Assembly (NCBI GenBank): GCA_963832025.1
Contig: CAWHSF010000003.1
Location: forward strand, 79,665-143,664
Source of the DNA: Candidatus Nomurabacteria bacterium
GTDB lineage: Bacteria > Patescibacteriota > Minisyncoccia > Phycocordibacterales > UBA9973
Length of the DNA stretch: 64,000 nt
Reading direction: 5' to 3'
Shown here in pieces: positions 12,811 to 35,346 of this stretch (the stretch's first letter is position 1; every line of letters starts with the position of its first letter). The translations under genes and the position numbers were made by a program. The notes under the pieces are model-generated. The model made no database searches. It was not told where the DNA came from and saw only the letters and a program-made list of their open reading frames with translations.

Positions 12811-12846
12811 CCTGTGGAAAAACCTCCAGACGTTGGACGTCTGGAG
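12811..12846. repeat. GTGGAAAAACC flank plus 23-nt palindrome ctccagacgttggacgtctggag (12824-12846)
   Basis: Core family member, also seen at 17177, 20219, 21729, 22213, 32351 and 35289. Confidence 0.9.
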
Positions 12847-12847
12847 T

Positions 12848-15800
12848 CTAACTCGGAATACTCACATTGATTACGTAAGGAGAAAGGTAATCATCGTATT
12901 CATTGCCTAGAGTATCTTGGATATGAACTTTCAAACGAAACGTTCCGTTTTGTAACAGTCCCCCTTTTGACAAAATACCGTCCCAAGTCTTGGTGCAAGT
13001 ATTAGTGCCATCAACACAACCGGCTCCGGATTGAAATAATTTATAAATACTTGCATCGTCTACGTTTTCAATTTTAACAGACATCCAATTTACATTTTCA
13101 TTCGCGGACAAAAAAAGTGTTAGGTTGTTTGTTAAGGGATTAGTTGTTATATCTCCTGCGATATTGTTGAATGTATAGCTGGTGATTAAAGGTGAGGAAA
13201 CTTGAGCAGGTGGAGACGGAGGATTAGGATTTGGGGCGACTGTTACTGTTACAATATAATTTTGTGTAGAATTATCTTCCGCGGTTACTGTATAAGTGAC
13301 CGGGCTGGTAAAATTCTGAGCTGTTATATTACTCGGACTGATTGAAGCCTTATCGGAAATTGTAATCGTGGGTACCAAAGACGTCACGTCAGTTCCATAC
13401 GGAACGGTCAAAGAAATAGTGTGATTACTTTCATCGACAACACCGACAATACTTGGATTTGAGCCCAAAAAATTAAAAGAGGAAATTATTTTAGCAGAAC
13501 TAAATTGCGGAACTGATTCATTTACAATATAAACAGTTCCGTCGCCACTTTTTATGCCATTTCCGTTAGTACCACTTGCCACAGTTGTGCCTGTAAATGA
13601 TGATGTTTGATAATAAATAGCGATTCTTCCTCCGCCACCTGGACCATAACATATATACGGACAAAATAGCCCTCCACCATTCGCTTGAAAACTTCCTGCA
13701 CCACTCAAGGTATTTGTCGTTATATAAATACTTCCACCACTTGAGGTATTGGCTCCATTGGCTGAGATTGTGCCATTGTTTATAATTGAATTAGCAATAA
13801 ATCGTATGGCGCCTCCTCCTGCGGCATGAGATCCATTACCTCCGCTACCTAAATCTGTCGGCATAGTAGAAGAACCGTATGTCGATGTCGAAGTGTTTAA
13901 ATATCCTACTCCACCATAACTCGCCCCGGCATAATATGGATTAGGATTATTTGGGTCGTAAACAGCCGTAGGAGCTCCGGGTCCAGCAGCTACTCCATAA
14001 CCTTTTGCATCAGCAGAAATGAATGAACCAGAATCAACATTAATATTCTGGATTGCTAAAGAAATCGTTTGCCCCGGAATAATAGAAAGAGAAGAATTTC
14101 CAACCACACTTAAATAACTAGATGTAATTTGTTCGGTACCTGAGAGAGTTAAAGTAGAATTTCTGTTCACCATCAACGTCGGAGCATTTAGTATCTCGCC
14201 TTTTGCTAAAGTAAAAGATGAATTTTGATCAACAATAAAATTATTTTTAGCTGTGATGGTCACCCCATCTTCCGATGTAACTACGGCACCATTTGAAATA
14301 TAAATATCATTGAATAAGAATGGTGCATCTGCTTGAAGAAATTTCCACGATGAACCAGTCAAGAAAAGGTCATCTGTTGATTCATTAAAAAGACCGACGG
14401 TGCCACTTTGCCCGCAAGATTCCGTGTAGCTATCATAACTCCCACATCCTCCTTTCGCATCTATCGTTCCACTGAAATTTGAATTTTGATAATGAACAGC
14501 TATTCGTCCTCCGCCTCCGGGACTTTTGAAATAACCCGATGCCAGAAGATTGCCACCATTCGCATGCACAACACCATTTCCTGTTATGTCATCTGCATTT
14601 ATATAGATACTGCCACCACTACTTGAAGTATTTCCATCGGCAGAAATAATTCCATTGTCAGTAAGAGCACCAGAGACTGCAAGATAGATAGCTCCCCCGC
14701 CACTCGATGCGCCTCCACTTCCTAAATCCATCGGCTTGGTGGCTGAGCCATATGTCGTAGAATAAGAAACACCGCTAAAACTAAATCCACCGTAACTCGC
14801 CCCGACAGAATATTCGGAAGAGATTCCGGGTCCGCTATTTTGACCATATCCTTGTCCATTGGCAGAAATAGAAGAACCAGGATCAATAGTAATATTCTGT
14901 GCATTGATTTTTACTCCCTTGAAAGAATTTGAGGAATTTGGATCACCCTGTAATGTTAAAGTTGCATTATTGGTGATTACCAAGTCTTCATAAGTATATT
15001 CTCCTGAAACCAAAGTAGTATTTTGATCTATTGTTGTAATATCGTGTGAAGGCTGTGGATTTGTTGGTGGAGTATTAGTATCGGAACCTGAGTCCGATGG
15101 TGGATTGGTCGTCGATCCATTTTGATCTGCTGGGTTCTGGTCTGTGCCGGAAGAAGTATTTGACGAGGAATTGTCAGGAGAAGAGTCTGTGGAATTTGAA
15201 GAACTATCATCTGTCGATGATGTATTTTGTGCTGATTGGGGATTTCCTGTTGTTGTTCCAGTAATTGTTCCAGGATTATCTTCCGGAATAGACGTCGTAA
15301 TTTCTCCTCCACCTCCTTTGCCGATAAATGAAGGAAAAGAAGAAACAGGCGGAGCTAATGAGATAATATTTCCGGTGGAAGTATCCTGAAGTGCGGGAGG
15401 TTGTTCGGCTGATGGAGAATTTACTGTTGTATCATTTGTAGTAGGGCTACTCGGCGGCGTCATTTGATTAAGCGCATTTATCGCGTCCCCACTATCATTA
15501 ACCGCTAAATTATTTATATCGTTTGCAGCCGGAGCAAAAAAAGAAGAAACGGAAGAAATTGCCGAACCGGTAATATTTGCAGTTGTATTGCCTACAGCAA
15601 CAGCAACACTACTCACACCATTGGCTACATAAACGAGAGCATCTTGTGCTGTAATTGTCACAGGGTCGAGAATAGACAAAACAGTACCTTGAATTTTCTG
15701 CGCTAGGGTTAATTTCGGGGGGTTGATACAAAGAGAATTTTCATCTTGAATATTATTATTTTTTAATTTATTTAAAGAAGTTTTTATATCAGACACAATT

Positions 15801-16489
15801 CGGTCACCCTCATAGTTTAAATAAATTTTTAAAAAATCGTGTCCCATTCCACCATCGTCGCTACTTTTAAAATCTATATGCACATTGGGTTTTAAAATAT
15901 TTGTAAAAGGTGCCTTAGCTACGGCCCCAGCAATTACATTATCTGTATCGGAAGTTAAATACAAACCATCTCCAGCCACATGAGTGGCTGGAGATGCCAG
16001 ACTATAAACACCAATAGACTCACTCGGAACGCCACCGGACATATCAGCAACAGCATCATAGAAAGTGTTAGCATAGAAATTTCCCTGTGAATGCCCAACA
16101 AGTAAAAGTTTTTGCGTAGCCACTTTAGTACTTGCATCCGTAAGCATTTGAGCAAAATCTGAATCCTGCACATCAAACGAATTTTGGTCGAAATATTTTT
16201 GCAAAACAGAATCCAAAGAATCGATAATCACACCGTGAGTCGGATTGAGAACATAATCAACGATAAGTGGTTGGTTGTTGTAAGTTGTATTATTAAGTTT
16301 CCTCGCAAGAGCAATCGAATTGTCTCTTGCTCCTGCATCATATGTTAATACGCCATTTACTGTTAATATTGTATATCCGCTTTTTGAACATTGATTGTAT
16401 GCTAGAGACAATTTTGGAATAAAAAATAAAACAAGAAACATTAAACAACTAATAACTTTGCCATATTTTTTTATTAAATTATTTATCAT
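12848..16489 (-). CDS. 1213-aa secreted protein: signal peptide, lipase-like alpha/beta-hydrolase domain, low-complexity linker, duplicated Gly-rich beta-helix module, Ig-like domains
   Basis: Nucleophile-elbow LLLVGHSQGNFY. S/T/N/P-rich stretch. Two paralogous ~150-aa modules (GYG..SGPG...ASYGG...DLGSGG...GGGAI...SSGGSIYI...GGGGRIA..YQ). Stop abuts the repeat at 12846. Confidence 0.6.
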   Translation of the reverse strand: MINNLIKKYGKVISCLMFLVLFFIPKLSLAYNQCSKSGYTILTVNGVLTYDAGARDNSIALARKLNNTTYNNQPLIVDYVLNPTHGVIIDSLDSVLQKYFDQNSFDVQDSDFAQMLTDASTKVATQKLLLVGHSQGNFYANTFYDAVADMSGGVPSESIGVYSLASPATHVAGDGLYLTSDTDNVIAGAVAKAPFTNILKPNVHIDFKSSDDGGMGHDFLKIYLNYEGDRIVSDIKTSLNKLKNNNIQDENSLCINPPKLTLAQKIQGTVLSILDPVTITAQDALVYVANGVSSVAVAVGNTTANITGSAISSVSSFFAPAANDINNLAVNDSGDAINALNQMTPPSSPTTNDTTVNSPSAEQPPALQDTSTGNIISLAPPVSSFPSFIGKGGGGEITTSIPEDNPGTITGTTTGNPQSAQNTSSTDDSSSNSTDSSPDNSSSNTSSGTDQNPADQNGSTTNPPSDSGSDTNTPPTNPQPSHDITTIDQNTTLVSGEYTYEDLVITNNATLTLQGDPNSSNSFKGVKINAQNITIDPGSSISANGQGYGQNSGPGISSEYSVGASYGGFSFSGVSYSTTYGSATKPMDLGSGGASSGGGAIYLAVSGALTDNGIISADGNTSSSGGSIYINADDITGNGVVHANGGNLLASGYFKSPGGGGRIAVHYQNSNFSGTIDAKGGCGSYDSYTESCGQSGTVGLFNESTDDLFLTGSSWKFLQADAPFLFNDIYISNGAVVTSEDGVTITAKNNFIVDQNSSFTLAKGEILNAPTLMVNRNSTLTLSGTEQITSSYLSVVGNSSLSIIPGQTISLAIQNINVDSGSFISADAKGYGVAAGPGAPTAVYDPNNPNPYYAGASYGGVGYLNTSTSTYGSSTMPTDLGSGGNGSHAAGGGAIRFIANSIINNGTISANGANTSSGGSIYITTNTLSGAGSFQANGGGLFCPYICYGPGGGGRIAIYYQTSSFTGTTVASGTNGNGIKSGDGTVYIVNESVPQFSSAKIISSFNFLGSNPSIVGVVDESNHTISLTVPYGTDVTSLVPTITISDKASISPSNITAQNFTSPVTYTVTAEDNSTQNYIVTVTVAPNPNPPSPPAQVSSPLITSYTFNNIAGDITTNPLTNNLTLFLSANENVNWMSVKIENVDDASIYKLFQSGAGCVDGTNTCTKTWDGILSKGGLLQNGTFRLKVHIQDTLGNEYDDYLSPYVINVSIPS

Positions 16490-16498
16490 TTTTTTACT

Positions 16499-17032
16499 TT
16501 AGTTTGGTAAAGTTTTTAAATTCACATCACAACCATGTTGTAATTCAAAACTTTCTATTAGATTGTCAAAATTTGTTTTTATGTATTTTCTCTTTGTTGT
16601 ATTTAGCTGTTTATTGTCAACAAAAGTAATATATGCTTGAATCTTTTGGATATCATCATTACTTTTAGGAACAATTTCCCCAACACAATCAAACGCTCTG
16701 GAATATTCTTCTCCTGCAATTACCGTTGCTATTTGCTTGTTGACAACTGGCTCTGTTTCTTCGGTTTGTAATAAAAGTGCATACTGCAAAAGTACTGCTC
16801 TGGTTTTGGCAGAATCGGGATACGCATTGAAAATCGCAAGTTCCACGTCATCGCGAATGCCATTGTCATTTGCATCAACCCCAGCAATCGTCTGGTCGGC
16901 CAAGGTTCCAGGGTCAGGTGGCAGATTTGTGCCTATCACGTCGTCCAAGGTGAGTTTGGTATTATGGATTTTTTCCACTTCCTGCATTTGTCTTGGCATC
17001 ATTTTTGGATTTAATAAAAAGATAAACTCCAC
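16499..17032 (-). CDS. hypothetical protein; probably membrane-anchored if joined to an upstream out-of-frame segment
   Basis: 177-aa ORF. An ATG at 17132 opens a TM-helix segment (MEKIKIFFTRKIFKILMWAFLILVGLYLVLG...) that is out of frame across an A-run near 17005. Confidence 0.5.
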   Translation of the reverse strand: MEFIFLLNPKMMPRQMQEVEKIHNTKLTLDDVIGTNLPPDPGTLADQTIAGVDANDNGIRDDVELAIFNAYPDSAKTRAVLLQYALLLQTEETEPVVNKQIATVIAGEEYSRAFDCVGEIVPKSNDDIQKIQAYITFVDNKQLNTTKRKYIKTNFDNLIESFELQHGCDVNLKTLPN

Positions 17033-17164
17033 GAGCGATACCTAGGACAAGATACAGCCCGACTAAAATCAAAAAAGCCCACATTAATATTTTAAAAATT
17101 TTGCGCGTAAAAAATATTTTTATTTTTTCCATTATTAAATTGTATGCCGAAGATAAAATTGCAG

Positions 17165-17279
17165 AAGTGGAAAAACCTCCAGACGTTGGACGTCTGTAAG
17201 GATACAGACGTCCAACGTCTGGAGGCTGATGTTGGACATCTGCTAAAGCAGGTGTACAACATCATTCAACGTCTGGAGG
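17165..17279. repeat. composite repeat: GTGGAAAAACC, 49-nt double palindrome (17177-17225), gatgttggacatctgctaaagcaggtgtacaacatc (17228-17263), aacgtctggagg
   Basis: Members of two families fused. Lies ~33 nt upstream of the 17132 ATG. Confidence 0.9.
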
Positions 17280-17288
17280 TGCTAAAAC

Positions 17289-17316
17289 AAAAAACCACCC
17301 TCTGGGTGGTTTTTTG
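17289..17316. terminator. bidirectional terminator aaaaaaccaccc-tct-gggtggtttttt
   Basis: Downstream of the minus-strand gene ending at 17335. The same hairpin type recurs at 21806-21835 and 22296-22325. Confidence 0.6.
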
Positions 17317-17334
17317 TTTTGTTTTTAATAATAA

Positions 17335-19241
17335 CTACTGACCCATTCCATTCATCAATGCTTTGGTCTTTGGACCAACCAAACCATCAGCTGTGAGTCC
17401 ATGAGCTTTCTGCCATTGCTTGATGATAGCAATCGTTTTCGAACCGAGCCATCCATCGACAGCCAAATTAAGATTCAAATTTTTATTCAAGAACATTTGA
17501 AGTTGTTTGACTGCATCACCCTTGCTACCGTTTTTCAAAACTGTTGTTCCGAAATTGTAGGTTGTGGTGGTAGTTGTAGTCGTGCCATTGTTGTTCATTG
17601 TCGTTGTGGTCACAGAAACACCACCAGCACATGATTGACCTGTAGTAGGACTAAACCAGTATTTGAGGAACAACCTGGAACCGACCCAGATGGAGTAACT
17701 GTAATGACTGGAGTAGAGTTGGGGTTGTGGTAACTGGAGTCGTGGTTGGGGTGGTTGTGGTCGTAGTAGTCGTGGTTGTTGTGGTAGAAGAACCTGAACC
17801 GCCACCCATATTTAGTTGTCCTCCACCGCCGCCAGTAACATAACAAGTCTGTGTCGTATCTGGAGTAATAGTAAATGTTGAACCTGTACCAGTGATTGTC
17901 ACTATAGTTATTAAACATGGAAGCAGTACAAGTCTGAGGAGCAACGACTGCACCACCGTCAACATTGTTTAATGGATATCCATTAGGCGATGTAAGTGTG
18001 AAGGTGCCACTTGCAGATATTTCAGCAATAGTACTACCACCAATGTTTATAGAAGTAACTGTTGAACCGCTCGAAACTGTGTAGTTGTGACCACCCATGA
18101 CTACTGTGAAGACACCGGTAAAGGTAGGAGTAGCTACAGTTTTTAGTCCACTACCACTCAAAGTAAGATTGAAGTAAGGTACAGCTAGAACTGTTTGAGA
18201 ACCAGCTGCGTTGTAATTTACAGTGTTTCCAGTTGCAGTTGCAGTAAATGTTCCCATCGCCGAAGTTCCACCAATGTTCAAAGTCGCGCCTGCGCCGTTG
18301 GTAAGAGCTCCTGAGCCAGAGAGGGCTGTCGTTACCGTCAAGGTTCCATTGTTCGTATACGTTCCAGTAACCGCCAAAGAAGGAATGGAAACCGTTCCTG
18401 TAATAGTTTTAGTTGTTCCGCTCAGAGTATATACGCCTGTGCCGGCAGTTAAAGTACCGCTGTCGGCAAGATTTCCGCCGATACCCACCGTATAGGTGGA
18501 GTTGGCCACAGTGGCCCCGCTATCTATTGTGAGATTGCCAGCAAGAGATGTGCTTGCGCCCAAGGTGAGAGTGCCGGAAGTTGGTTCCATGTTGCCAAAC
18601 GTGTACGCACCGTTTACAGCGCTAGTGCCTGTAGTAAAAAATCCGGAAGTAGCACTCATGCTCACAGTTCCACCCGCAGAAAGAGTACCGCCATTCATAG
18701 TAATATACCCGTTGCTGGTAGTGGTGAGCTGAGCTTTAGCCAATGTACCAGTAAAAGTAATATTTCCATTAACTGTCAAAATTGAGTTTGATGTCAATAC
18801 TGAATTTCCACCAGAACCTCCGTTCATCGCTAGGCTTCCAGTATTTATGGAAGCGAGAGTATCGGTTATGGTAGAGTTACCGGTGCCCGAAGAACCAGCA
18901 AAGGTCAGAGCTCCTGTGATTACGAGATAAGAACCAGAGTTGAGCGTAATCGCATTTGAAGCGTTTACAGGATCTTGCAAGGTTACCGATGCCGCCACGG
19001 CAGGGGTACTCAAATCATTGGCACTCGTTATCGTCACAGTGACGCCAGCTGGGATAATAACACTATCAGCAGACGTAGGGACTACTCCCCCGCAGCCACT
19101 CCAAGTGCCCGTATCGCTCCAGTTTCCTGTAGCTGCGGTACATGTATTTGCTGCATGCACATTACTTACGCCAACAAAACTAAAAAAAGCGAAAACAAAA
19201 ACAAAAATTCCCACACTTAACAATAATTTATTTTTTAACAT
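17335..19241 (-). pseudogene. secreted beta-helix surface protein with C-terminal PG-binding domain, at least 3 frameshifts near 17650-17930
   Basis: Signal peptide MLKNKLLLSVGIFVFVFAFFSFVGVSNVHA. C-terminal GSKGDAVKQLQMFLN...HGLTADGLVGPKT. Coding sense jumps between the three listed ORFs (17610-19241, 17651-17965, 17335-17805). Confidence 0.6.
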
Positions 19242-19363
19242 TATTTTTAATTTTAATAATAAACATAAAAGAAAAATCTTTGATTCTCGACCAGAAGAAT
19301 CAAATTAGAACACACTTATTATACAATAGATTAATTCATGAAGAAATGGTGAGAATAAGCCCC

Positions 19364-19410
19364 TGTGGATAACCCCCACACCTTTTGTTTTAAACGAAAG
19401 GTATGGGTTA
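19364..19410. repeat. ctgtggataac plus CCCCCACAC-family hairpin (cccacaccttt / aaaggtatggg)
   Basis: Immediately 3' of the second RAYT gene's stop codon. Confidence 0.8.
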
Positions 19411-19413
19411 ATT

Positions 19414-20097
19414 TTATACTTCCTGTGACAGCTCTTCTTCCAGCCCCAGAAAAGAAGAAACTTCTTTTCTTTGTTCCCTAATTACAGAGGACACCTTTAG
19501 GCACTCATTCTTGAAGTTATTGTTGGTACCAAAAAAACTGAGCAGGTTCTTCGCTTCTTTTTTGGACACAACATTAAAATCCATGTTTTCGTATTCAGCA
19601 TCACTGGACAAAATCAACTCCCGCTTTTCTTCGGGAATATTGTGAATCATGTGATTGATATTCACATATGGAAAAATTTTCAAAAAATATTTATTGTTTT
19701 TAATTAAGCTTGATTTAAACCTGCCTTGAAACAAAGCGCCATTCCTTTTATGCACCAAATTGAAATATTTCGTATAGCCACCGAGTAATCTTTTTAAAAA
19801 TTCGGAGATGCCTCCATCTACTTCTTGTTTTAAAATAAAATGAAAGTGATTCGGATTGAGACAATAACAAACAACAGCAACTAAGTTCCCTTCCTTGCTT
19901 TTTCTTTTCAAGCGTCGAGAAAATAACTTGTCTCGTGAATTGTCCCTGATACTACCAACCGGATAAATTTTATTGAATTGTTTTATGCTCAAAACAAAAC
20001 GATTGAGGTCCTTCTTATTCATAAAGATATCCCTCTTATCGACTCCTCTGTTGTAAATGTGATAATACTCGTTAGTTACAAGCGGATGTTTTCTCAT
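19414..20097 (-). CDS. rayT: REP-associated tyrosine transposase (RAYT-like, HUH Y1 family), second copy
   Basis: YYHIYNRGV, HUH motif NPNHFHFIL, GALFQGRFKS. Tyr block is degenerate (PYVNINHMIH). Start taken at the internal Met. Confidence 0.7.
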   Translation of the reverse strand: MRKHPLVTNEYYHIYNRGVDKRDIFMNKKDLNRFVLSIKQFNKIYPVGSIRDNSRDKLFSRRLKRKSKEGNLVAVVCYCLNPNHFHFILKQEVDGGISEFLKRLLGGYTKYFNLVHKRNGALFQGRFKSSLIKNNKYFLKIFPYVNINHMIHNIPEEKRELILSSDAEYENMDFNVVSKKEAKNLLSFFGTNNNFKNECLKVSSVIREQRKEVSSFLGLEEELSQEV

Positions 20098-20206: not shown

Positions 20207-20266
20207 ATGTGGATAACCCTCCAGACGTTGGACGTCTGTAAGCTTACAGACGTCCAACGTCTGGAG
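20207..20266. repeat. catgtggataacc flank plus perfect 48-nt palindrome (20219-20266)
   Basis: ctccagacgttggacgtctgtaag|cttacagacgtccaacgtctggag. An identical copy sits at 35289-35336. Confidence 0.95.
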
Positions 20267-20474: not shown

Positions 20475-20502
20475 GGATTAATGATAGCAAAATTGGGAAA
20501 AA

Positions 20503-20610
20503 AACAAAACAGACGTTGGACGTCTGTTTTGTTTAGAACGCAGGCGTTGGACGCTTATAAGATGTTGGACAACTGCTAAAGCAGGTATACAACATCACGT
20601 ACAACGTCTC
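20503..20610. repeat. composite repeat: long hairpin aaacaaaacagacgt-tgg-acgtctgttttgttt, gcgttggacgc, gatgttggacaactgctaaagcaggtatacaacatc (20561-20596)
   Basis: Same families as at 17165-17279. Confidence 0.85.
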
Positions 20611-20613
20611 CTA

Positions 20614-21310: not shown

Positions 21311-21393
21311 GGGGATAACCTTGAAGACGTTGTACACCTGCTTTAACAGTTGTCCAACGTCTGAAAACAAAAAAGCCCCTTAGGGGGCTTTTT
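21311..21393. repeat. ggggataacc flank, agacgttgtacacctgctttaacagttgtccaacgtct (21325-21362), terminator aaaaaagcccc-tta-ggggcttttt
   Basis: Inverted-orientation member of the GTTGGACA...TGTACAAC family. Confidence 0.85.
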
Positions 21394-21696: not shown

Positions 21697-21717
21697 TTGG
21701 GGTGCAATTGATAAAAA

Positions 21718-21835
21718 AGTGGATAACCCTCCAGACGTTGGACGTCTGTAAGGTTACAGACGTCCACGTCTGGAGACTCCCCTTTTGGGGTGCTCCTAAG
21801 ACGCAAAAAACCACCCCCGAAGGATTGGTTTTTTG
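21718..21835. repeat. ~118-nt composite: agtggataacc, 47-nt double palindrome (21729-21775, 1-nt deletion), ccccttttgggg...aagacgcaaaaaacc-hairpin-ttttttg
   Basis: Same layout as 22203-22325. Confidence 0.9.
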
Positions 21836-22198: not shown

Positions 22199-22202
22199 AT
22201 AA

Positions 22203-22325
22203 GTGCATAAACCTCCAGACGTTGGACGTCTGTAAGAGTCCGGACGTCCAACGTCTGGAGGGCCCCGTTTGGGGTGGCTCCTCCAAGACGCAAAAAACCA
22301 CCCCGGTAAGGGGTGGTTTTTTGTT
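22203..22325. repeat. ~120-nt composite: gtgcataaacc, 48-nt double palindrome (22213-22260), ccccgtttgggg...aagacgcaaaaaaccacccc-ggtaa-ggggtggttttttg
   Basis: Second copy of the 21718-21835 layout. The terminator hairpin is perfect here. Confidence 0.9.
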
Positions 22326-25300: not shown

Positions 25301-26054
25301 CAGCGATGTTTAGACCGTTGAAAATGATTTGACCCAATGTGAATTGATAGAAGCTGCGTCTGTCAAACGAGTATTACCACTATATAGGTATACGTTTGGG
25401 AAGACTGGGTTATCTGAAATTCCTGTTCTCTGTAATGTAAGTTGTGTAAGTGTTCCTGTTCCAGTGAACATAAAGTGAGCCAAGTCAGCAGTAGCTTGAC
25501 CTTGGATAAGGTTGCCAGCTGCTGGATTGTCTGTAGCAAGAGAAACAGTTAGAGGACCAGTTGATGTAACCGGTACGCCACTTGAACATGGTTGACCAGT
25601 CAATGAACTATATCCTGTAGATGAGACACATCCTGCTGGAAGAGTCGTAGTGGTGGTCGTTGTGCCAGTTGAACAGGTTGCGCCAGTTGTAGGACTGAAT
25701 CCTGAAGTTGAAGTACAACCTGCTGGAAGGCTCATAGTCATACCGCCACCAAATGCAGCGAGAGACTTAGGACCGAATACTCCATCAGCTGTCAAACCTT
25801 CCTTTGTCTGCCAAGCTTCAACAGCGGCTTTGGTTTTTGGACCGAAGCTACCATCGGAAGTAATACCGAGAGCAGTCTGAAGGATCATAACTTCAGCATG
25901 ATATGTGGAACCAACTCTCAAGGTGTGTGTGATTGAAGTAACAGTTGCTGTTTGTGCAGCAGCTGTATTAACAGCGAGAACACCAGCAACCTACAAGCAA
26001 AACTGCAGCAATCATAACTCCAAGAAAGAATTTTGATTTTAATAAATTACTCAT
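22370..26054 (-). pseudogene. heavily decayed paralog of the 6743-9586 surface protein (signal peptide, PG-binding domain, Cys motifs, beta-sandwich repeats)
   Basis: Fragments in all three minus frames: N-terminus MSNLLKSKFFLGVMIAAVLL then a stop; ILQTALGITSDGSFGPKTKAAVEAWQ; LVGSKPTITLNAS...TVTVTADNGGDIALSEIPL (compare LVGSKPNITLASS...TLTVTADTSGDIALAKIPV); C-terminus LYAYPSGSVSIHN-stop at 22370. No ORF of 60 aa or more across most of 23280-24440. Confidence 0.75.
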
Positions 26055-26520
26055 AAAATTTTTCTAATTTATCCTTCGACAAAATTTGCTTCGCAAATAA
26101 TTTGTCTCAGGATGCTACGCCATTAATTAGTTTCGACAAAACTAAAAGCGTATTTTTTTCCTATCGTTAATCATCACCTACTAATAACTAATAATTTTTA
26201 ATAATGAAGCAGATGAATAAAAAACGAACAGAGATAAACAAACATTGAAAAACGAAACACAAAATTTTACAAAATAAAATGTGAGTTATTTCATAAAACT
26301 TTTATTCAGTTTTCAATGACCTTTCTTTTACCCTTTTAAATCTTCCAAGTGATTGAAAAATCTAATCAGGCTATCTATCCTCCTTTGAGATTTTTTCGAC
26401 GAAATCGCAAACGAAAATAAATATTTTCTACAAACAAATCTATGTGCACAGAAAACACAGCGTGTGCTTCTGTAAACATAAACACATTATAATATGTAGC
26501 TCTAAAATAGAGCAATATAT

Positions 26521-26700
26521 TATGTGGATAACTCGCCATGTAGGCGAGCCACTCCAGCTATATGTTCTCATACTTTTATACGGATTGCAAGGAGAAATGG
26601 GTGCTTTGAGATAAATAGGAGCGCCGAGACGTTGGACGTCAGCTGGAGATTCAAATTCATGACGTTGGACATCCGCCTCTGGCGGGTGTCCAACGTCTAG
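26521..26700. repeat. repeat cluster: atgtggataac plus tcgcc-atgta-ggcga hairpin, gagacgttggacgtc, 37-nt gacgttggacatccgcc-tct-ggcgggtgtccaacgtc (26661-26697)
   Basis: Three family members in 180 nt; the last is the partner of 6680-6716. Confidence 0.85.
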
Positions 26701-26711: not shown

Positions 26712-27578
26712 CTATTTCAAAAAATATCTACTCCAACGCTTCTCTCCGGTCTTATCAAGGACGTTGTCTTTTACCATAGAAACTAGCTCGCGCTGCAATG
26801 TCTTTTCACTGCAAACTATAAGGACATTAAATTTTTCAGTGTGTGCTTGGGCTTTGTCCTTTATGTCCTTTATGGTAGCTCCCCCTGTTATTGTTTTAAT
26901 TATAGCTATGATGCTTTCACGTCGCTGTCTTTTAAGAATATTAAACCCCGCATCAAATCCTTCACGGGCAGAGATATTTTTATCGGACACAGAAATATGT
27001 CTTAGGGCTTTCAATAAAGTGCTTCCCTTTTGAACGCCAAGATTGGTGGAATTGTGATGTCCGATAACCTGACGTCGGACATCTGCTAAAGCAGGTGTCC
27101 GACGTCTCTCCTCATCGAGAGTAGAATTTGCAAAAAATTCTGCTAAATTTATCTCCTTGTTTGATATATCAGCCTTGTTTGTGGAATCCAAAATAGATTG
27201 ATTCAATTCAGAAAATTCCTTCTTTAAGATATTGCAATTCATCTCGGAAATAATATTCACCGCGGAAGCAATCTCTAAAAAGGACATGATTTCGGCTATC
27301 TTGTTACTCATAAAAGACAATGTGTGCCCGGTATTATTTCGTTGTAATAAATGTATGTCCGTTATGATTTCAGCGCCCAATGTCCTTAATTTATTTCTTA
27401 GAGGTTCGTCTTTGTCTATGATGTCCGTAACCATGTAAAGAGCTGTAATTAGCTTATCTGTTTTAGTATAAGAACCCACCATAAAAATCGCTGTTTGGTA
27501 TGGAACAGGCACAGAGGAAGAAGTGTCTTTTACAGAGTTTTTATTAGAGTCCTTGAGATTTTTTTCATCTCTAAACAT
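26712..27578 (-). CDS. hypothetical protein (288 aa) with probable C-terminal winged-helix domain
   Basis: C-terminal ...SEKTLQRELVSMVKDNVLDKTGEKRWSRYFLK pattern. Contains an in-frame palindromic insert. Confidence 0.55.
   Translation of the reverse strand: MFRDEKNLKDSNKNSVKDTSSSVPVPYQTAIFMVGSYTKTDKLITALYMVTDIIDKDEPLRNKLRTLGAEIITDIHLLQRNNTGHTLSFMSNKIAEIMSFLEIASAVNIISEMNCNILKKEFSELNQSILDSTNKADISNKEINLAEFFANSTLDEERRRTPALADVRRQVIGHHNSTNLGVQKGSTLLKALRHISVSDKNISAREGFDAGFNILKRQRRESIIAIIKTITGGATIKDIKDKAQAHTEKFNVLIVCSEKTLQRELVSMVKDNVLDKTGEKRWSRYFLK
27071..27106. repeat. 36-nt palindrome gacgtcggacatctgctaaagcaggtgtccgacgtc inside the 288-aa ORF
   Basis: Same core (ctgctaaagcag) as the intergenic copies at 17228 and 20561. 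Preceded by cgataacc. 12 codons (RRTPALADVRRQ). Confidence 0.85.
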
Positions 27579-27591: not shown

Positions 27592-27637
27592 ACACCCCCA
27601 CACTTTTTGCAAGTCCTTTAAAAAAGTGTGGGGGTGT
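27592..27637. repeat. CCCCCACAC-family hairpin with perfect 17-bp arms
   Basis: acacccccacacttttt (27592-27608) / aaaaagtgtgggggtgt (27621-27637). Confidence 0.9.
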
Positions 27638-30402: not shown

Positions 30403-30479
30403 TTACTTTTATTCAGGTCCTCGGTCCTCCGGGGCCCCACACCCCGGCCAGACCATTCATAAAAGCAACTACTACCCTA
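30392..30479. repeat. ~88-nt imperfect hairpin: 28-nt AT-rich arms, GC-rich core ccgggg-ccccaca-ccccgg
   Basis: tagggcagtagttacttttattcaggtc / gaccattcataaaagcaactactacccta. Overlaps the stop codon at 30400-30402. Confidence 0.7.
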
Positions 30480-30489
30480 TAACTAAATA

Positions 30490-30649: not shown

Positions 30650-30660
30650 ACGTAAATTAT

Positions 30661-31709
30661 ATGCAAAAGAAAAAAGAAAAGAAGGCGGACAAGACAATGG
30701 GAGGTGAAGATGCGACAGTTTTAAATGACACCCTGAAAGCTATCCAGACAAAGTTTGGAGAAGGCGCAATCATGAAATTTGGTGATTCTCCAAAAGTGGA
30801 TATCAATGTCATCCCGACCGGTTCAATCGGACTGGACATGGCGCTCGGTATCGGTGGAATTCCTCGAGGGAGAATCATTGAAATATTTGGACCGGAATCT
30901 TCCGGAAGACTACCCTTTCACTGCACATCGTGGCCGAAGCGCAAAAAAAAGGTGGTGTCTGCGCATACATTGATGCTGAACACGCCATGGATCCGGACTA
31001 TACAAAAAAACTCGGCGTCAACATAAATGATTTACTTATTTCTCAACCGGACAACGGCGAACAAGCACTGGAAATAGTAGAGAGTCTCGTGCGAACAGGA
31101 AAAATTGATGTCATCGTGGTGGACTCGGTAGCTGCGCTCACCCCCAAAGATGAAATTGAAGGAGATATGGGAGCATACCATGTCGGCAAGCAAGCGCGCC
31201 TGATGTCGCAAGCGCTTCGCAAATTGACCGCCATCGTCGCCCGTTCGAAAACTGTCGTAATTTTCATCAACCAAATACGCATGCAAATCGGAGTGATGTT
31301 TGGCAATCCGGAAACGACTCCCGGAGGAAAGGCTTTAAAATTTTATACTTCGGTTCGACTCGACATTCGCAAAATTGCGCAGATTAAAAAAGGAGAAGAA
31401 GTCGTCGGCGGACGCACTCGGGTGAAAGTGGTGAAAAACAAAGTTGCCGCACCATTCAAACAAACGGAATTTGATATCATTTACAACGAAGGCATTTCCA
31501 AAGAAGGCGAATTGATGGCCTTGGGAGAAAAATATAAAATCATTGAGAAAAGTGGCAACTCATACTTTTATACACCCGCGGGTGAAGGAAAGGAAAAGAT
31601 AAAATTGGGTGTTGGTTACGATTCCACTCGAAAATTCTTGAAAGAAGAAAAAAAGATTTCCGAACAAATCTTAAAAGAAATTAAAAAGAAGTTTGCGGAA
31701 GAGGCATAA
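30661..31709 (+). CDS. recA: recombinase RecA (apparent -1 indel in the P-loop codons near 30904)
   Basis: GPESSG then a frame change, then [50 protein letters not shown]. Restoring one A in tccggaa(a)gact gives GPESSGKTT. Confidence 0.9.
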
Positions 31710-31725
31710 AAAAAGATTATAAAAA

Positions 31726-31756
31726 CCAAAAAATTTGCCAAAAGCAAATTTTTTGG
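31726..31756 (+). terminator. recA terminator hairpin
   Basis: ccaaaaaatttgc-caaaa-gcaaattttttgg. Confidence 0.6.
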
Positions 31757-31768
31757 TAGTATGGAGAG

Positions 31769-32350
31769 ATGTCACAATTACAATACAATGAAATTCGCGA
31801 GAAGAAAATCATTATTCATGACGATGAGCCGTGCGAGGTCGTGGAGTCCCATGTCGCCCGCACTCAGCAACGCAAACCGCAAAACCAGGTAAAACTAAGA
31901 AGCTTAATTTCCGGCAAGGTCTTCCCTGCCACTTTCCACGTTTCCGATTCAGCCGATGAAGCAGATATGGAGAAACGCGAAGTTACTTTCCTGTATCACA
32001 ATAAGGGTGAATATTGGTTTTGTGATCCCACAGACAAAAGTAAAAGATTTAAACTGGACGAAGCATTGCTCGGAGATACGGTAAAATTTTTAAAAGAAAA
32101 CAGCAATGTCACCGCTTTGGTTTGGACAAACGAAGACGAAGAAGAAAAAATCATCAAATTAAGCATGCCTATCAAAATGGAATTTAAGGTAAAAGAAGCT
32201 CCGCCGGCGGTGCGCGGAGACACTTCTAAGGGAGGGATCAAGGTTATCATTTTAGAAAATGGAGCCAAGCTCAATGCTCCGATGTTCGTAAACGAAGGAG
32301 ATATCATTCGGGTAAATACGGAAACCGGAGATTACGTGGAGCGAGTCTAG
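31769..32350 (+). CDS. efp: elongation factor P
   Basis: 193 aa with an EF-P three-domain pattern, ending GDIIRVNTETGDYVERV. TAGTAT lies 6 nt upstream of the ATG. Confidence 0.85.
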   Translation: MSQLQYNEIREKKIIIHDDEPCEVVESHVARTQQRKPQNQVKLRSLISGKVFPATFHVSDSADEADMEKREVTFLYHNKGEYWFCDPTDKSKRFKLDEALLGDTVKFLKENSNVTALVWTNEDEEEKIIKLSMPIKMEFKVKEAPPAVRGDTSKGGIKVIILENGAKLNAPMFVNEGDIIRVNTETGDYVERV

Positions 32351-32384
32351 CTCCAGACGTCCAACGTCTGGAGGTTTATCCACA
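32350..32384. repeat. 23-nt palindrome ctccagacgtccaacgtctggag plus gtttatccaca (perfect TTATCCACA), reverse orientation
   Basis: Mirror image of the 12811-12846 element. Confidence 0.9.
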
Positions 32385-32387
32385 ATC

Positions 32388-32416
32388 AAAAAATCCCCTT
32401 TCGGGGATTTTTTGAT
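32388..32416. terminator. bidirectional terminator aaaaaatcccc-tttc-ggggatttttt
   Basis: The same hairpin is repeated at 34013-34040. Confidence 0.65.
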
Positions 32417-33435
32417 TACTTACCTATTATAAAATTTTTATTTAAATAATAAGTCACATAACCTACACCTATCACAAAAAATCCTACAAATATCAAAGAA
32501 ACAGGCCATCCAACAGAATTAACAAAATATTTTGAAGTAAGTTTTATAATATGAGCCATTAAAAACAAAGCTCCAAACAAAAGCATCGACTGACTCTTTA
32601 GATAAACGCTGGCATAAAAAGCTACAAAAATTAAAGCAATAAAAATTATATCGAAAAATCCTCCGACAAGAATACCTGAACCCAAAATAGCTAATGTGCC
32701 AAAACCATAAAGTACATTTTGAATGGCTTTTTTTTCTTTTCCATCCGCAGAATCCACAGCGACAGCAATAGATTTGTAACCATAAGATATAAGAATATAA
32801 GAAAATCCCCAAAGCATAGTGGCCCATTTCAACAAATCAGAATTAAATTGTGGTGGAAACATTTGCAACAAGAATGAAAAGTAAGCCCACGAAGCAAAAC
32901 CTATGGTAATTAAAATTAAAATATTTTTTTTATTAACAAGGCAGGCAGCTCCAAAAATTAAAAATAAAAGACAGGCGGAAAAAAACGTGTATGGCCAAAC
33001 AAAATTAATATTGGCTTCGTGTAAGAGAACATATATCCCTAAGGGGGCAAGCGCTGCAGAGATAGTAAACATAACCTGAGAAAGCATTCTTTGAGATGGT
33101 TGGTAAAGAAAAAAGGCCAGAACGTAAGTCACAAGAGAAATACCCAAAGTCACCGAAACACGACCTGAAAATCCTATTTGTGTCCAATTTTGACTAATCA
33201 AAATTATCACACCAACCAAAACAATCATCGCACCAATTCCATAAAAAGTATGGATTAAGTTTTTTGAGTTTTCTTCTTTGCTCGAAGGTTGCTGAGGAGG
33301 GACCGGAATAAAGTTTGAAGCTGTATTATTAGGAGTGGCAGAACTGTCATTTATCAAAGTCATTAAATCTGCCTTAGAAATTTTACCGTTTTCCAATTGT
33401 CCTTGTATTAACGAAATAATTTGCTGTTTATCCAT
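32416..33435 (-). CDS. multi-pass membrane protein (339 aa; soluble N-terminal helix then ~9 TM helices)
   Basis: Hydrophobicity pattern only. Confidence 0.55.
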   Translation of the reverse strand: MDKQQIISLIQGQLENGKISKADLMTLINDSSATPNNTASNFIPVPPQQPSSKEENSKNLIHTFYGIGAMIVLVGVIILISQNWTQIGFSGRVSVTLGISLVTYVLAFFLYQPSQRMLSQVMFTISAALAPLGIYVLLHEANINFVWPYTFFSACLLFLIFGAACLVNKKNILILITIGFASWAYFSFLLQMFPPQFNSDLLKWATMLWGFSYILISYGYKSIAVAVDSADGKEKKAIQNVLYGFGTLAILGSGILVGGFFDIIFIALIFVAFYASVYLKSQSMLLFGALFLMAHIIKLTSKYFVNSVGWPVSLIFVGFFVIGVGYVTYYLNKNFIIGK

Positions 33436-33439
33436 ATAT

Positions 33440-33970
33440 TTATTTTATCCAACCAAGAAATTTAAAATTATTTGAATAATAATCACTTCCACTCACATTT
33501 AAGCCGTCTAAACTTTTTGAAGCATTACCTTTAGCAATGACATATCCATTTTGATTACTATTAGAACCAAATAAAGCAAAAATTCCTTCATTGCTGTATT
33601 GATATTTCACGATATATCCATCAGGCGAAGAGGGTCCTGGGTCAACAACAATATTTTTTACATCATTAAAATCAACCTGATGCGTAGAATTATCTTTTAC
33701 ATTATAAATAAATAGCGGTGGATTAATGGCAGTATTAGAAGCGACATATCCCTTAGCAACCGGTAGAGGGCTTAATACAAGAAAGTTGTTTTGAACTGCA
33801 TAAGTGTTTGTGTATAGTTGATTGTTATAATAAGAATTTGCATTGGAGTAAAGAAAATCATACTGTGGTTTTATAAACCAATTAGGAACAAAAATAACAA
33901 TAGAAATTATGAGAATGAAAAAAACTGGCAACGCAATCCCCACAACTAGAGGCAAGTTTTTTATTTTCAT
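33440..33970 (-). CDS. membrane-anchored hypothetical protein
   Basis: Start at MKIKNLPLVVGIALPVFFILIISIVIF (TM helix). Confidence 0.5.
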   Translation of the reverse strand: MKIKNLPLVVGIALPVFFILIISIVIFVPNWFIKPQYDFLYSNANSYYNNQLYTNTYAVQNNFLVLSPLPVAKGYVASNTAINPPLFIYNVKDNSTHQVDFNDVKNIVVDPGPSSPDGYIVKYQYSNEGIFALFGSNSNQNGYVIAKGNASKSLDGLNVSGSDYYSNNFKFLGWIK

Positions 33971-34012
33971 ATACTTACATTTATTATACCAAGATATTAA
34001 TCTCTTCACAAA

Positions 34013-34040
34013 CTAAAAATCCCCTTTCGGGGATTTTTAG
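34013..34040. terminator. bidirectional terminator, second copy of atcccctttcggggat
   Basis: ctaaaaatcccctttcggggatttttag. Confidence 0.65.
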
Positions 34041-34045
34041 TTTCT

Positions 34046-34246
34046 TTATTTAACTACAAAAGGAAGCAAGCCGAGGAATCGAGCGTGTTTGATGGCGTTT
34101 GCCAAAGCGCGTTGGTTTTTGGAAGTTACCCCGCTGCGTTTATGGCTCACAATCTTACCATTTGGATTTAAAAATTTCTTTAGAATTTCTATATCCTTGT
34201 AATCTATATATTTTATATTGTTGGCTGAAAAATAATCTTGTCTCAT
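34046..34246 (-). CDS. rpsR: 30S ribosomal protein S18
   Basis: 66 aa, IDYKDIEILKKFLNPNGKIVSHKRSGVTSKNQRALANAIKHARFLGLLPF. Confidence 0.9.
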   Translation of the reverse strand: MRQDYFSANNIKYIDYKDIEILKKFLNPNGKIVSHKRSGVTSKNQRALANAIKHARFLGLLPFVVK

Positions 34247-34258
34247 AAATTTTTATTA

Positions 34259-34708
34259 TTAAAAAGGTATATCCTCCGGATTAATATCTTCTTCTGGGTA
34301 TTCTATTGCATCTACTTCTCCTTCAGATGCCGGAGCTTTTGAACCGACACTATTCGTACCTCCACTTGCCGTGTTAGCTCCCTTTGGACCAAACTGTGTG
34401 CGATCCGCAACTATCTCGGTGCGATATTTTTTCTCTCCACTCGTTTTATCATCCCAACTACGTGTCTGCATTCTGCCTTCAACTAAAATAGAACTTCCTT
34501 TTTTCATATATTGTGCGACGGTTTCTGCTTGACGTCCAAACACGACAACGTTGTGATAATCGGCTGATTCTTGGCGAGCGCCATTCTTGTCTTTCCAAAC
34601 ACGATTGGTGGCCAAAGAAAATGTGCAAACTTTTATACCGGAAGGCAAAGAACGAAGTTCCGGGTCGCGAGTAAGGTTTCCTATTACAATTGCTTTGTTT
34701 AAATACAT
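34259..34708 (-). CDS. ssb: single-stranded DNA-binding protein
   Basis: OB-fold N-terminus MYLNKAIVIGNLTRDPELR and acidic tail ending DIPF. Sits in the conserved rpsF-ssb-rpsR order. Confidence 0.9.
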   Translation of the reverse strand: MYLNKAIVIGNLTRDPELRSLPSGIKVCTFSLATNRVWKDKNGARQESADYHNVVVFGRQAETVAQYMKKGSSILVEGRMQTRSWDDKTSGEKKYRTEIVADRTQFGPKGANTASGGTNSVGSKAPASEGEVDAIEYPEEDINPEDIPF

Positions 34709-34726
34709 GGTTAAAAAAATTTACAA

Positions 34727-35251
34727 TTACACTGCTACTAAGGCATCGATCTCTTTATCAATTTCTTCTTTGTTTATAGGGGTAACATTTTCAACATCAT
34801 CATTTTTGGCTTTAAATCTTTTATGTGTGGCATCTCTACCAACAAATCTCTTTGCCGCAATAGTATTTTCTTTAACTGTCTTTAATATTAAAAATCGGAT
34901 AACATTTGGGTCTAAATCCATTTTCTTTTTCAACTCTAAAACTTTATCTGAGTCCATAGTAAATTTAACCCAGCCAAAATATGCAGAGTTAAATTTATTT
35001 CGTACGTTCGCCACGGTTTTTACCATAGAATAAGCGAGTGGCGTCAGTTTCGGCATTTCATCGGAGATATGAACACCTCCCAAAGAAGACACCAGTTCTT
35101 TCAAATTGCCGAAAACAGTCGGAACGTTGACTTCCTCAATTGTAGGCACTAAAAGATAACCAAGCTCATAAACTCTGTTGTTTGTTTCTTCCGTAATTTC
35201 ATTTGCGTCTTTTATTTCGACGTCTTTTTCACTTGACTGCATGAATCTCAT
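34727..35251 (-). CDS. rpsF: 30S ribosomal protein S6 (with terminal extensions)
   Basis: YELGYLLVP... core, positioned upstream of ssb and rpsR. Confidence 0.75.
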   Translation of the reverse strand: MRFMQSSEKDVEIKDANEITEETNNRVYELGYLLVPTIEEVNVPTVFGNLKELVSSLGGVHISDEMPKLTPLAYSMVKTVANVRNKFNSAYFGWVKFTMDSDKVLELKKKMDLDPNVIRFLILKTVKENTIAAKRFVGRDATHKRFKAKNDDVENVTPINKEEIDKEIDALVAV

Positions 35252-35285
35252 ACTAGCAAAAAGCCCTGAAAAAGTAAAGTTTATT

Positions 35286-35346
35286 ACCCTCCAGACGTTG
35301 GACGTCTGTAAGCTTACAGACGTCCAACGTCTGGAGGTTTATCCCC
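35286..35346. repeat. perfect 48-nt palindrome (35289-35336) plus gtttatcccc flank
   Basis: Identical to 20219-20266. Lies ~35 nt upstream of the rpsF start. Confidence 0.95.

Follow-up and report, generated by a model that had tools for sequence, protein, structure and literature searches.

The 64,000 nt of DNA analysed here, from a Candidatus Nomurabacteria contig (CAWHSF010000003.1, positions 79,665 to 143,664; hereafter the window, to whose full length all counts given for the window refer), raise the question of what kind of system underlies a family of short, nested palindromes scattered between the genes. An initial annotation had described these as conserved outer arms with exchangeable inner hairpins, produced either by repeated re-invention around a protein-recognised stem or by nested insertion of one hairpin into the loop of another. 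We consider it probable, at roughly 0.7, that the palindromes are a population of repetitive extragenic palindromic (REP) units and their doublets (REPINs), short non-autonomous hairpin elements cognate to a Y1 HUH transposase of the REP-associated tyrosine transposase (RAYT) type encoded at 19414–20097. The closest relatives of the window among public genomes are metagenome-assembled genomes (MAGs) labelled in their records, from which all organism labels are taken, as Candidatus Paceibacterota or Nomurabacteria, in the Patescibacteria or candidate phyla radiation (CPR).

The 23 nt unit is CTCCAGACGT-NNN-ACGTCTGGAG, with the loop TGG in the reference orientation. When the window was searched for the pattern CTCCAGACGTNNNACGTCTGGAG with up to two mismatches, 11 matches were found against 0.00 expected from 100 dinucleotide-preserving shuffles, and both the basic unit and the doubles of the initial annotation, here 47–48 nt long, are thus borne out. 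The matches start at 12824, 17177/17202, 20219/20244, 21729, 22213/22238, 32351 and 35289/35314, and the loop CCA at 32351 identifies the unit there as the reverse-complement orientation of the one at 12824. The arm decamer GTTGGACATC, with up to one mismatch, occurs 23 times (3.1 expected) and the 16-mer AGACGTCCAACGTCTG 11 times in the 64 kb. Intergenic DNA makes up 12.3 % of the window, and the elements, units and long forms together, occupy 12 of the 32 intergenic gaps of at least 40 nt. A REP is a hairpin of 7–10 bp with a 3 nt loop, CAGACGT-TGG-ACGTCTG, and a REPIN consists of two inverted units separated by 4–8 nt, which can form a pair of small hairpins or a single long hairpin. The five doubles are near-perfect palindromes of 47–48 nt, with arms of 23–24 nt and 0–4 nt between them. 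When folded as single-stranded DNA every element is far more stable than shuffled sequence (z from −4.2 to −12.9), and the doubles reach −27 to −30 kcal/mol (z from −11 to −13). As had been claimed, the doubles at 20219–20266 and 35289–35336 are identical (48/48); their flanks are unrelated, which is as expected for recent copying.

The gene at 19414–20097 on the minus strand, which had gone unnoticed in the initial annotation, encodes a RAYT-like Y1 HUH tyrosine transposase of 227 aa. Its score with Pfam Y1_Tnp, 23.0 bits, equals the 23 bit cutoff, and its score with the NCBIfam equivalog REP_Tyr_transpos (NF047646; E=2e-6) is 27.7 bits, under the cutoff of 80 bits; hence, it is a distant relative of the curated family and not an equivalog. 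The motifs YHIYNRG, NPNHFHFIL (the HUH motif, H84-F-H86), YTKYFN...LFQGRFKS and PYVNIN are present, with a candidate catalytic tyrosine, Y144, within YVNIN, and residues N83-H84-F85-H86, Y144 and N148 are invariant among 34 aligned homologues. The proline of the Y---NP motif is replaced by H or Y in the RAYT clade and is kept in a paralogue, RAYT2 (YIHLNP), which is treated below. Searches of solved structures by sequence, with the single protein or with a profile, gave no meaningful match and the fold search alone succeeded: an AlphaFold model (pLDDT 79, pTM 0.77) submitted to Foldseek has as its best PDB match 4ER8, the E. coli RAYT bound to a REP hairpin (E=1.1e-5, probability 1.00), followed by 2A6M, 2VJV and 2XQC, which are structures of the IS608 and ISDra2 TnpA proteins. 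A total of 3067 homologues were found, some of them named ‘REP element-mobilizing transposase RayT’ (JGI) or ‘REP-associated tyrosine transposase’ (NCBI).

Loci from related genomes carry L numbers and came from two sources, namely a scan of public genome contigs that selected loci by the hairpin motif, and a set of seven (L113, L116, L117 and L120–L123) fetched by the RAYT protein alone. Using tblastn, RAYT homologues were detected in the motif-scan loci L070 (80 % identity), L033 (74 %), L094 (65 %) and L015 (42 %). Hairpins of the same design, with the apex GT-TGG-AC, lie within 200 nt of the RAYT homologue in 11 of 11 loci from 10 genomes, and the flanking hairpins are usually repeated elsewhere in these loci too. 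They are usually found on both sides of the gene (L070, L094, L033, L113, L116, L117, L120 and L121) and on one side in L122 and L123; the window gene has a REPIN 120 nt upstream of it. The stem differs from genome to genome: CAGACGT-TGG-ACGTCTG in the window, L070, L094 and L033; TAGACGT-CCA-ACGTCTA in L116; CGGACGT-CCA-ACGTCCG in L120 and L121; CGGGTGT-TGG-ACACCCG in L117; CAGGGGT-CCA-ACCCCTG in L122; GTAGCGGT-CCA-ACCGCTAC in L123; and CAGGTAT-CCG-ATACCTG in L113. With one representative per genome, seven of the nine stem pairs have changed in both partners and 98.9 % of cells remain paired, whereas none of 500 shuffles reached the observed score and sliding the partner strand left only 25–43 % paired. 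Hence, the hairpin is constrained in its structure, and its sequence follows the genome in which the transposase resides.

Several homologues also include an internal, in-frame copy of their own genome's hairpin approximately 15 codons before the HUH motif. The copy is perfect in L117 and L121, with stems of 16 and 20 bp that encode PSGVGHPT and DSDVGRPN, and is intact in L120 and L015 too. Those of L033 and L122 are nearly intact, whereas the window, L070, L116 and L123 have decayed copies. In the RAYT model the segment corresponds to a low-confidence loop, residues 58–67. The protein-recognised stem envisaged in the initial annotation is supported in a specific form, the likely protein being the RAYT-type Y1 transposase encoded in the window, whose homologues are flanked by co-varying hairpins at all of the loci examined.

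The gene itself looks vertically inherited, to judge from a gene order consisting of the RAYT, a gene of ~210 aa and an Ig-like protein of ~1100–1260 aa, with L10 further on where the locus reaches that far. This order is common to the window, L070, L113, L116, L117, L121 and L123, in which the homologues are 63–80 % identical, and vertical inheritance in a conserved neighbourhood is typical of RAYTs (PMC5581495). The window orthologue of the ~210 aa gene (16499–17132, minus strand) is split into overlapping open reading frames (ORFs) in different frames, 16962–17132 and 16499–17032, which suggests a frameshift or a sequencing error.

All of the long forms have common 13 nt arms, CCAGACGTTGGAC and GTCCAACGTCTGG, and one of three types of centre, so that the description as conserved outer arms with exchangeable centres is accurate. 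Type 1 has the centre GTCTGTAAGCTTACAGAC (five copies in the window), type 2a ATCTGCTAAAGCAGGT (four copies) and type 2b ATCCGCCTCTGGCGGGT (two copies). The 2b centre is also found in the related genome JARLIG MAG_BO118, once in L064 and twice in L070, and in the same composite context of a half-REP, T, 2b, GG or GA and a full REP. As the 2a and 2b centres are multi-copy and the composite recurs, they are best seen as propagated REPIN subfamilies, and repeated re-invention finds no support. In REP terms, each double is thus a REPIN and each single a REP, and what had been seen as ‘swappable cores’ correspond to REPIN subfamilies that differ in spacer, some of them common to a related genome. 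Several structured spacers are similarly found side by side among classical REP dimers (PMC3733652). Long forms occur in at least 10 separate 8 kb blocks in each of JARLIG MAG_BO118 and CAZKWN and in at least eight in JBAYFP. Both of the units first regarded as basic could be derived from a double by deletion between internal 7 nt direct repeats (CAGACGT or ACGTCTG).

The cluster that begins with the type 1 REPIN at 17177–17224 (spacer TAAGGATA, −30.3 kcal/mol, z −12.9) continues with a 2a element at 17227–17264 (+; arms GATGTTGGACA and TGTACAACATC, centre CTGC-TAAA-GCAG, z −5.8) and a 3′ REP remnant, CAACGTCTGGAGG, at 17268–17280 (+). This remnant duplicates 17212–17224, and the 2a element is thus bracketed by a 13 nt direct repeat. 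A composite at 20540–20611 (+; z −5.2) has the outer half-arms CAGGCGTTGGAC and GTACAACGTCTCC around a 2a element at 20561–20596. It is only at these two sites (17212–17280 and 20540–20611) that nested insertion is plausible. The remaining 2a elements are an inverted copy at 21325–21362 (−) and one at 27071–27106 (+; z −7.7) with compensatory arm changes, GTCGGAC/GTCCGAC. The latter lies in frame within a 288 aa ORF with no Pfam match (26712–27578, minus strand), where it encodes RRRTPALADVRRQ and has one half of the ORF on either side. Either a REP lies here in the linker of a single gene, or the element has joined two ORFs into one. Subfamily 2b is represented by 26661–26697 (+; centre CCGCC-TCT-GGCGG, −20.1 kcal/mol, z −8.9) and, inverted, by 6679–6717 (−; −19.7 kcal/mol, z −8.3), which has compensatory changes GTTCGAC/GTCGAAC in its arms.

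Among the other type 1 REPINs, that at 20219–20266, the copy upstream of the RAYT start, is a perfect 24+24 palindrome (−27.4 kcal/mol, z −10.9). The one at 21729–21775 is 47 nt long owing to a 1 nt deletion in the right arm, that at 22213–22260 has a diverged inner right arm (GTCCGGAC), and 35289–35336 is the second copy of the 20219 sequence. The single REP at 12824–12846 (+; TGG loop, z −5.5) lies 1 nt past the stop codon of the gene 12848–16489, and that at 32351–32373 (+; CCA loop, z −6.9) starts at the first base past the stop codon of EF-P. A single REP at 20502–20534 (+), AAACAAAACAGACGT-TGG-ACGTCTGTTTTGTTT, has a stem extended by A and T runs and a terminator-like shape on both strands, and a degenerate single core, GACGT-TGG-ACGTC, is found at 26628–26640 (+). 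All of the coordinates initially given for the second layer were correct. Two intragenic hairpins that had been included are not counted as family members, as they share little sequence with it and correspond to no extra residues relative to Pfam profiles. The one at 40723–40744, in an M16 peptidase gene, has only GACGT/ACGTC in common with the family and lies in a Peptidase_M16 stretch without additional residues, and that at 56338–56376 is within the DUF4131 domain of ComEC, which contains no insertion (162 residues against 160 profile positions).

A role mainly as ordinary intrinsic terminators was considered and rejected, as T tracts are mostly missing and canonical terminators are found separately nearby. 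T-rich tails are present only at 17177–17224, 26661–26697 and 20502–20534, and the canonical terminators stand beside the repeats at 17283–17321, 21370–21393, 22290–22324, 32384–32417 and 34010–34043. Rfam gave no match at gathering thresholds, and only chance sub-threshold matches in the region from 12.5 to 36 kb. The last two terminators are near-identical (AAAAATCCCCTTTCGGGGATTTTT) and bracket a 1.66 kb segment of two genes, a DUF2157 membrane protein and a 189 aa ORF, in place of which L006 has a single copy of the terminator.

Comparison with syntenic relatives revealed signs of turnover at several of these positions. The REP at 32351 and the box beside it (see below) are missing from the orthologous 3′ end of the EF-P gene in L006, and at the orthologous site of the 35289 REPIN, L006 (3471–3520) has a REPIN that differs in its outer stem and spacer. 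Downstream of the RAYT gene, the cluster of type 1, 2a and remnant in the window is replaced in L070 by a half-REP, 2b and a single. All three of the indels larger than 1.5 kb (4047–6075, 17197–19447 and 32350–34013) are bounded by hairpins of these kinds.

Many copies have beside them a short box, G(G/T)TTATCCAC(A), which corresponds to the E. coli DnaA-box consensus. That consensus has been quoted as TT[AT]TNCACA (PMC6006769). Seventy-four oriented AGACGT-CCA-ACGTCT cores were collected from six loci, the window, L033, L060, L070, L084 and L094, which represent five genomes (L070 and L084 being neighbouring blocks on the same JARLIG contig). The box starts exactly 6 nt after the core in 14 of them, where ~0.5 would be expected, and in 14 of the 14 the loop strand facing the box reads CCA. 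In JBAYFP (L062, L094 and L098) the box is instead in the REPIN loop. The exact 9-mer TTATCCACA occurs seven times in the window, six of them in intergenic gaps, with sites at 4163–4171, 5999–6007, 19364–19372, 20208–20216, 26523–26531 and 32376–32384, and near-matches are found as well. Beside the elements, GGTTTTTCCACA (12811–12822, minus strand) follows the 12824 REP on the minus strand; TTATCCACA, in the form GGTTATCCACA (20208–20218, minus strand), abuts the 20219 REPIN at the offset of 6 nt from the core; GTTTATCCACA (32374–32384) comes directly after the 32351 REP; and boxes or box-like sequences accompany the inverted 2a element (GGTTATCCCC, 21311–21320) and the REPINs at 21729 (21719–21728), 22213 (GGTTTATGCAC, 22202–22212) and 35289 (GTTTATCCCCA, 35337–35347).

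The box is also found beside hairpins unrelated to the main family (4164, 6000 and 19365) and alone (L084 1965–1980; window 26524). Between the boxes that adjoin the two identical REPINs there are differences at two of 11 positions and, thus, the box was probably not copied together with the hairpin. Mostly the box is on the same strand as the downstream gene and is followed at a distance of 12–40 nt by an extended −10 element (TGnTATAAT), itself 6–9 nt before an ATG. It may mark a target for insertion or a host site close to the promoter. A DnaA-C-like C-terminal domain by which the RAYT might read TTATCCACA was considered and rejected, as Pfam gave no such match even with E as high as 10 and the tail is not long enough; the C-terminus of the model is a pair of helices with no DnaA match in Foldseek. 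An extended −10 element (TGnTATAAT or TACAAT) 6–9 nt upstream of the ATG, without a Shine-Dalgarno sequence, was seen at 12786–12800, 17133–17145, 21697–21712 and 22199–22215, and many genes of the window appear to be leaderless or nearly so. The ~600 nt (25922–26520) downstream of a box and TATTATAAT promoter at 26524 include no ORF of at least 80 aa and no Rfam match, and may be an unannotated small gene or non-coding RNA.

Modelled on E. coli RAYT and IS608/ISDra2, the mechanism that we infer comprises binding, cleavage and mobilisation of the units by the RAYT. A hairpin would form on transiently single-stranded DNA and the transposase would recognise the shape of the stem together with the conserved apex GT-TGG-AC. 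Tyr144 and an HUH-bound metal would then permit cleavage and rejoining beside the hairpin, and units would thereby be copied or moved into intergenic DNA, with a preference for sites right after stop codons and beside a TTATCCACA-like box.

Several points weigh against assigning the palindromes to this transposase. The loci from the motif scan were ascertained by the motif itself and only the RAYT-anchored loci (L113–L123) are unbiased. The RAYT motifs fit TnpA_Y1 subclass 2.1, or Bertels Group 1, in which no REPs were found (PMC6006769), and the 16-mers flanking Group 1 genes are only mildly repeated, at about 12 per replicon (PMC5581495). The canonical 5′ GT[AG]G tag is missing. The apex and inner 5 bp are conserved across many genomes, which could reflect a host function rather than transposase specificity, and the presence of some elements at orthologous positions (35289 and L006 3471–3520) also fits selection for a local function.

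The last two points raise the question of whether the hairpins are host cis elements, acting as stabilisers of 3′ untranslated regions, termination or insulation signals or sites for a host protein, with the transposase incidental or domesticated. The positions of copies 0–1 nt past a stop codon (12824 and 32351) or near one (20219 and 35289), the bidirectional terminator-like extended stem at 20502–20534, the REPIN kept at the orthologous site in L006 and the widely conserved apex are all consistent with this. However, most copies are without a T tract and canonical terminators stand separately. At several sites the order is gene, terminator, REP, so that the REP would be transcribed by read-through only, and no Rfam family matches. 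Nor would a host element explain why the local stem variant flanks, and is found inside, every transposase homologue, and we regard this explanation as unlikely. Very unlikely, in our opinion, are duplex operator sites, with a dimeric regulator on the inverted repeats and DnaA on the TTATCCACA box forming a promoter regulon. The elements and boxes 20–40 nt upstream of extended −10 promoters (TGnTATAAT), and the agreement of the box with the DnaA-box consensus and its mainly intergenic distribution, are in favour of this proposal. Against it, the palindromes are up to 48 nt long and have nested alternatives, a single genome holds several stem variants along with three spacer types, and the compensatory changes extend along the whole stem, even far from the centre. 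Moreover, the loop is asymmetric and oriented, with CCA beside the box in every case, the spacing to the −10 element is variable (12–40 nt), and the REP and box units at 32351 and 35337 are between convergent genes or on the non-promoter strand.

That the common arms are a low-complexity coincidence and the subfamilies unrelated is hardly conceivable, as only the two intragenic look-alikes (40723 and 56338), which are probably coincidental, point that way and the proposal is refuted by the excess of unit and decamer matches over expectation, by the 13 nt arms common to the subfamilies and by the recurrence of the same composites in a related genome. A different role, in which hairpin and box together form a two-part module used by the cell and are not just a selfish repeat, appears to us distinctly unlikely. 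It would involve a clade of ‘REP-less’ subclass 2.1 RAYTs that had lost the DnaA-C-like domain of their relatives and worked at box-marked sites just upstream of promoters, the box being bound by the host DnaA or another factor, and through the internal in-frame hairpin the enzyme would be able to sense or regulate the gene that encodes it. If it were true, REP biology in minimal CPR genomes would be tied to the binding of replication initiators or to the architecture of promoters. A REP/REPIN population cognate to the RAYT at 19414–20097 is, therefore, the explanation that we prefer.

The window includes a second paralogue, RAYT2 (4192–4851, minus strand; 219 aa; Y1_Tnp 1.6e-9), with the motifs NHFH, LFEGKFKS and YIHLNP, that shares 37 % identity with the first RAYT over 151 aligned residues. 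It is associated with a hairpin of another design, TGCGTTAGG-CAAGA-CCTAACGCA, found on the minus strand at its 3′ side (4177–4199), where it is followed by AGTTATCCACACA, and in a second copy (5951–5973, minus strand) at the other end of the RAYT2 segment, after a duplicated 38 nt box segment. The ~2 kb segment (4047–6075), bounded by these direct copies of the CAAGA-loop hairpin and the 38 nt duplication (GTTATCCACACAAGCCTTAAAAAAGGTCTAGAAACTGC), is missing from three syntenic relatives (L084, L014 and L081). The CAAGA apex, which is AGG-CAAGA-CCT in the window, L055 and L081 and GG-CAAGA-CC in L015, is also found with different stems in L055, in L081 and in L015, where a hairpin of this class occurs three times around and inside a homologue that belongs to a third RAYT lineage. 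In this locus (L015 3558–6716, a Nomurabacteria MAG) the homologue with its CAAGA-loop hairpins sits between ftsA and ftsZ. An IS605-type cassette was rejected for RAYT2, as the 341 aa gene in the segment (4909–5934) is without a TnpB domain and has no significant Pfam match. A third hairpin motif, CCCCCACAC...GTGTGGGGG, is found at 6012–6076, 19355–19410 and 27592–27637, and two of the three copies end in GTGTGGGGGTTATCCACA.

Matches of the motif scan outside the CPR were rejected as the same element, being either inverted arrays of the heptamer TTGGACG or isolated chance matches. The arrays (L047, L031, L068, L072, L083, L092 and others; Saprospiraceae and Planctomycetia) have TTGGACG in tandem on one side and its complement on the other, and are a different, possibly interesting type of repeat.

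The genes of the window include a partial 23S rRNA, ribosomal proteins L10 and S6, EF-P and SSB, and a syntenic MAG labelled ‘Saccharibacteria’ (CAZKWN) is probably a close relative. The 23S rRNA match (1–2871, minus strand) spans model positions 1–2195 in 2871 nt, a surplus of ~680 nt, and window positions ~1189–1595 are replaced by a shorter stretch in the related L084. The surplus holds two tRNA-like structures on the rRNA strand (1167–1278 and 1454–1521; Rfam tRNA, 48.8 and 37.1 bits), one of which has 49 nt inserted into its anticodon arm, and neither is called by ARAGORN. The surplus may represent an rRNA intervening sequence with processing signals that resemble tRNAs.

To our knowledge, work on REP/REPIN-RAYT systems has been confined almost entirely to Proteobacteria and Cyanobacteria. 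The proteobacterial systems, E. coli REP/BIME with TnpA_REP/YafM and the Pseudomonas REPINs, are the subject of work by Bertels & Rainey in 2011, Nunvar in 2010, Ton-Hoang in 2012 and Messing in 2012. Like them, the family described here consists of short, imperfectly palindromic units scattered in intergenic DNA, often just past stop codons, and of inverted pairs that form longer hairpins, with several subfamilies and spacer types in one genome. As in the REPtron, a Y1 HUH transposase in conserved synteny is flanked by its own repeats, the sequence of which co-varies with the transposase lineage, and the best structural match is 4ER8. The over-represented extragenic unit, inverted doublets and flanked RAYT gene place the family within the broad REPIN/REP definition of Bertels & Rainey. 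That definition also includes hundreds of copies per genome, and related MAGs have at least 8–12 separate blocks each. In contrast to the proteobacterial systems, the hairpin has a 3 nt loop and a conserved apex, GT-TGG-AC, a TTATCCACA-like box is found at a fixed offset, the transposase by its motifs belongs to subclass 2.1/Group 1 and not to the REP-associated groups 2 and 3, and the host belongs to the Patescibacteria. With a spacer of just 4–8 nt, the REPIN here is a near-perfect 48 nt palindrome.

The family also differs from the named REP superfamilies. The hairpin foot is flanked by CTC/GAG or by variable paired bases and not by the GT[AG]G of the GTAG superfamily. It shares with CGTC REPs, RPE, Correia/NEMIS and MITEs (miniature inverted-repeat transposable elements) its nature as small palindromic intergenic repeats, some of them in frame inside genes. 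MITEs have terminal inverted repeats and target-site duplications and are 100–300 bp long. CGTC REPs have an unpaired terminal CGTC, a stem of 8–9 bp starting with A-T, a loop of 4–5 nt, a CCA tail and no linked transposase (Di Nocera 2013, PMC3733652), whereas here CGTC is within the stem and the loop is 3 nt.

Judged by motifs and not by a tree, the RAYT fits TnpA_Y1 subclass 2.1/Bertels Group 1. It shares with subclass 2.1 and TIRYT transposases (PMC6006769, PMC3733652) the motifs NH[YF]H, FQ and Y[IV]xLN(P) and a proximal C-terminal SS tail, the signature here being NHFH, LFQGRF, YV[NH]xN and LSSxxEY when compared with Table 1 of PMC6006769, as well as a length of ~220–240 aa and a low copy number. 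Subclass 2.1 has been reported to be without REPs, or to have long terminal inverted repeats with the consensus GGGG[AT][CG]A[CG] (PMC6006769; PMC3733652), and many of its members have a distal helix-turn-helix domain resembling Bac_DnaA_C (PMC6006769). In contrast, the proteins examined here are without this domain, yet are flanked by dispersed hairpins at all 11 loci, and one 16-mer is present 11 times in 64 kb as against the roughly 12 per replicon of Group 1 (PMC5581495). A cognate REP in frame inside the transposase gene, in a surface loop, is a feature shared with subclass 2.4 of Cyanobacteria and Bacteroidetes (PMC6006769), which differs in its signature (WQ, YIxNNP) and in REPs that carry GT[AG]G, some in a ‘double foot’ form. 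The fold is that of IS200/IS605 transposases (IS608 and ISDra2), which recognise subterminal hairpins as single-stranded DNA, and the fixed offset of the box may have its analogue in the insertion of IS200/IS605 elements beside a short, specific target. Unlike in IS200/IS605, the motif is Y---N and not Y---Q, the repeats are dispersed without the gene, and the genes are single and syntenic, not multiple near-identical copies (the two window paralogues are, as noted, only 37 % identical). No TnpB domain was found by Pfam in the genes neighbouring the transposases.

A full-text literature search found, within the collection searched, no paper linking RAYT/REPIN or ‘REP-associated tyrosine’ with Patescibacteria. 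The analysis would, thus, extend a known system to a phylum and a transposase subgroup without an earlier description, in that a widespread Patescibacteria clade of subgroup 2.1/Group 1, with its 3067 homologues, displays the full REPtron signature of co-evolving hairpins on both sides and an internal copy. Among bacteria, the host genomes rank with the smallest and most streamlined, in which one would least expect repeats to persist, and the repeats may serve as markers for strain typing and explain assembly breaks in CPR MAGs. With a 7 bp stem, a 3 nt loop and clear covariation, this is a compact system for asking how a Y1 transposase reads a hairpin, and the DnaA-box-like motif at a fixed offset, which distinguishes it from its proteobacterial counterparts, provides a concrete, testable lead.

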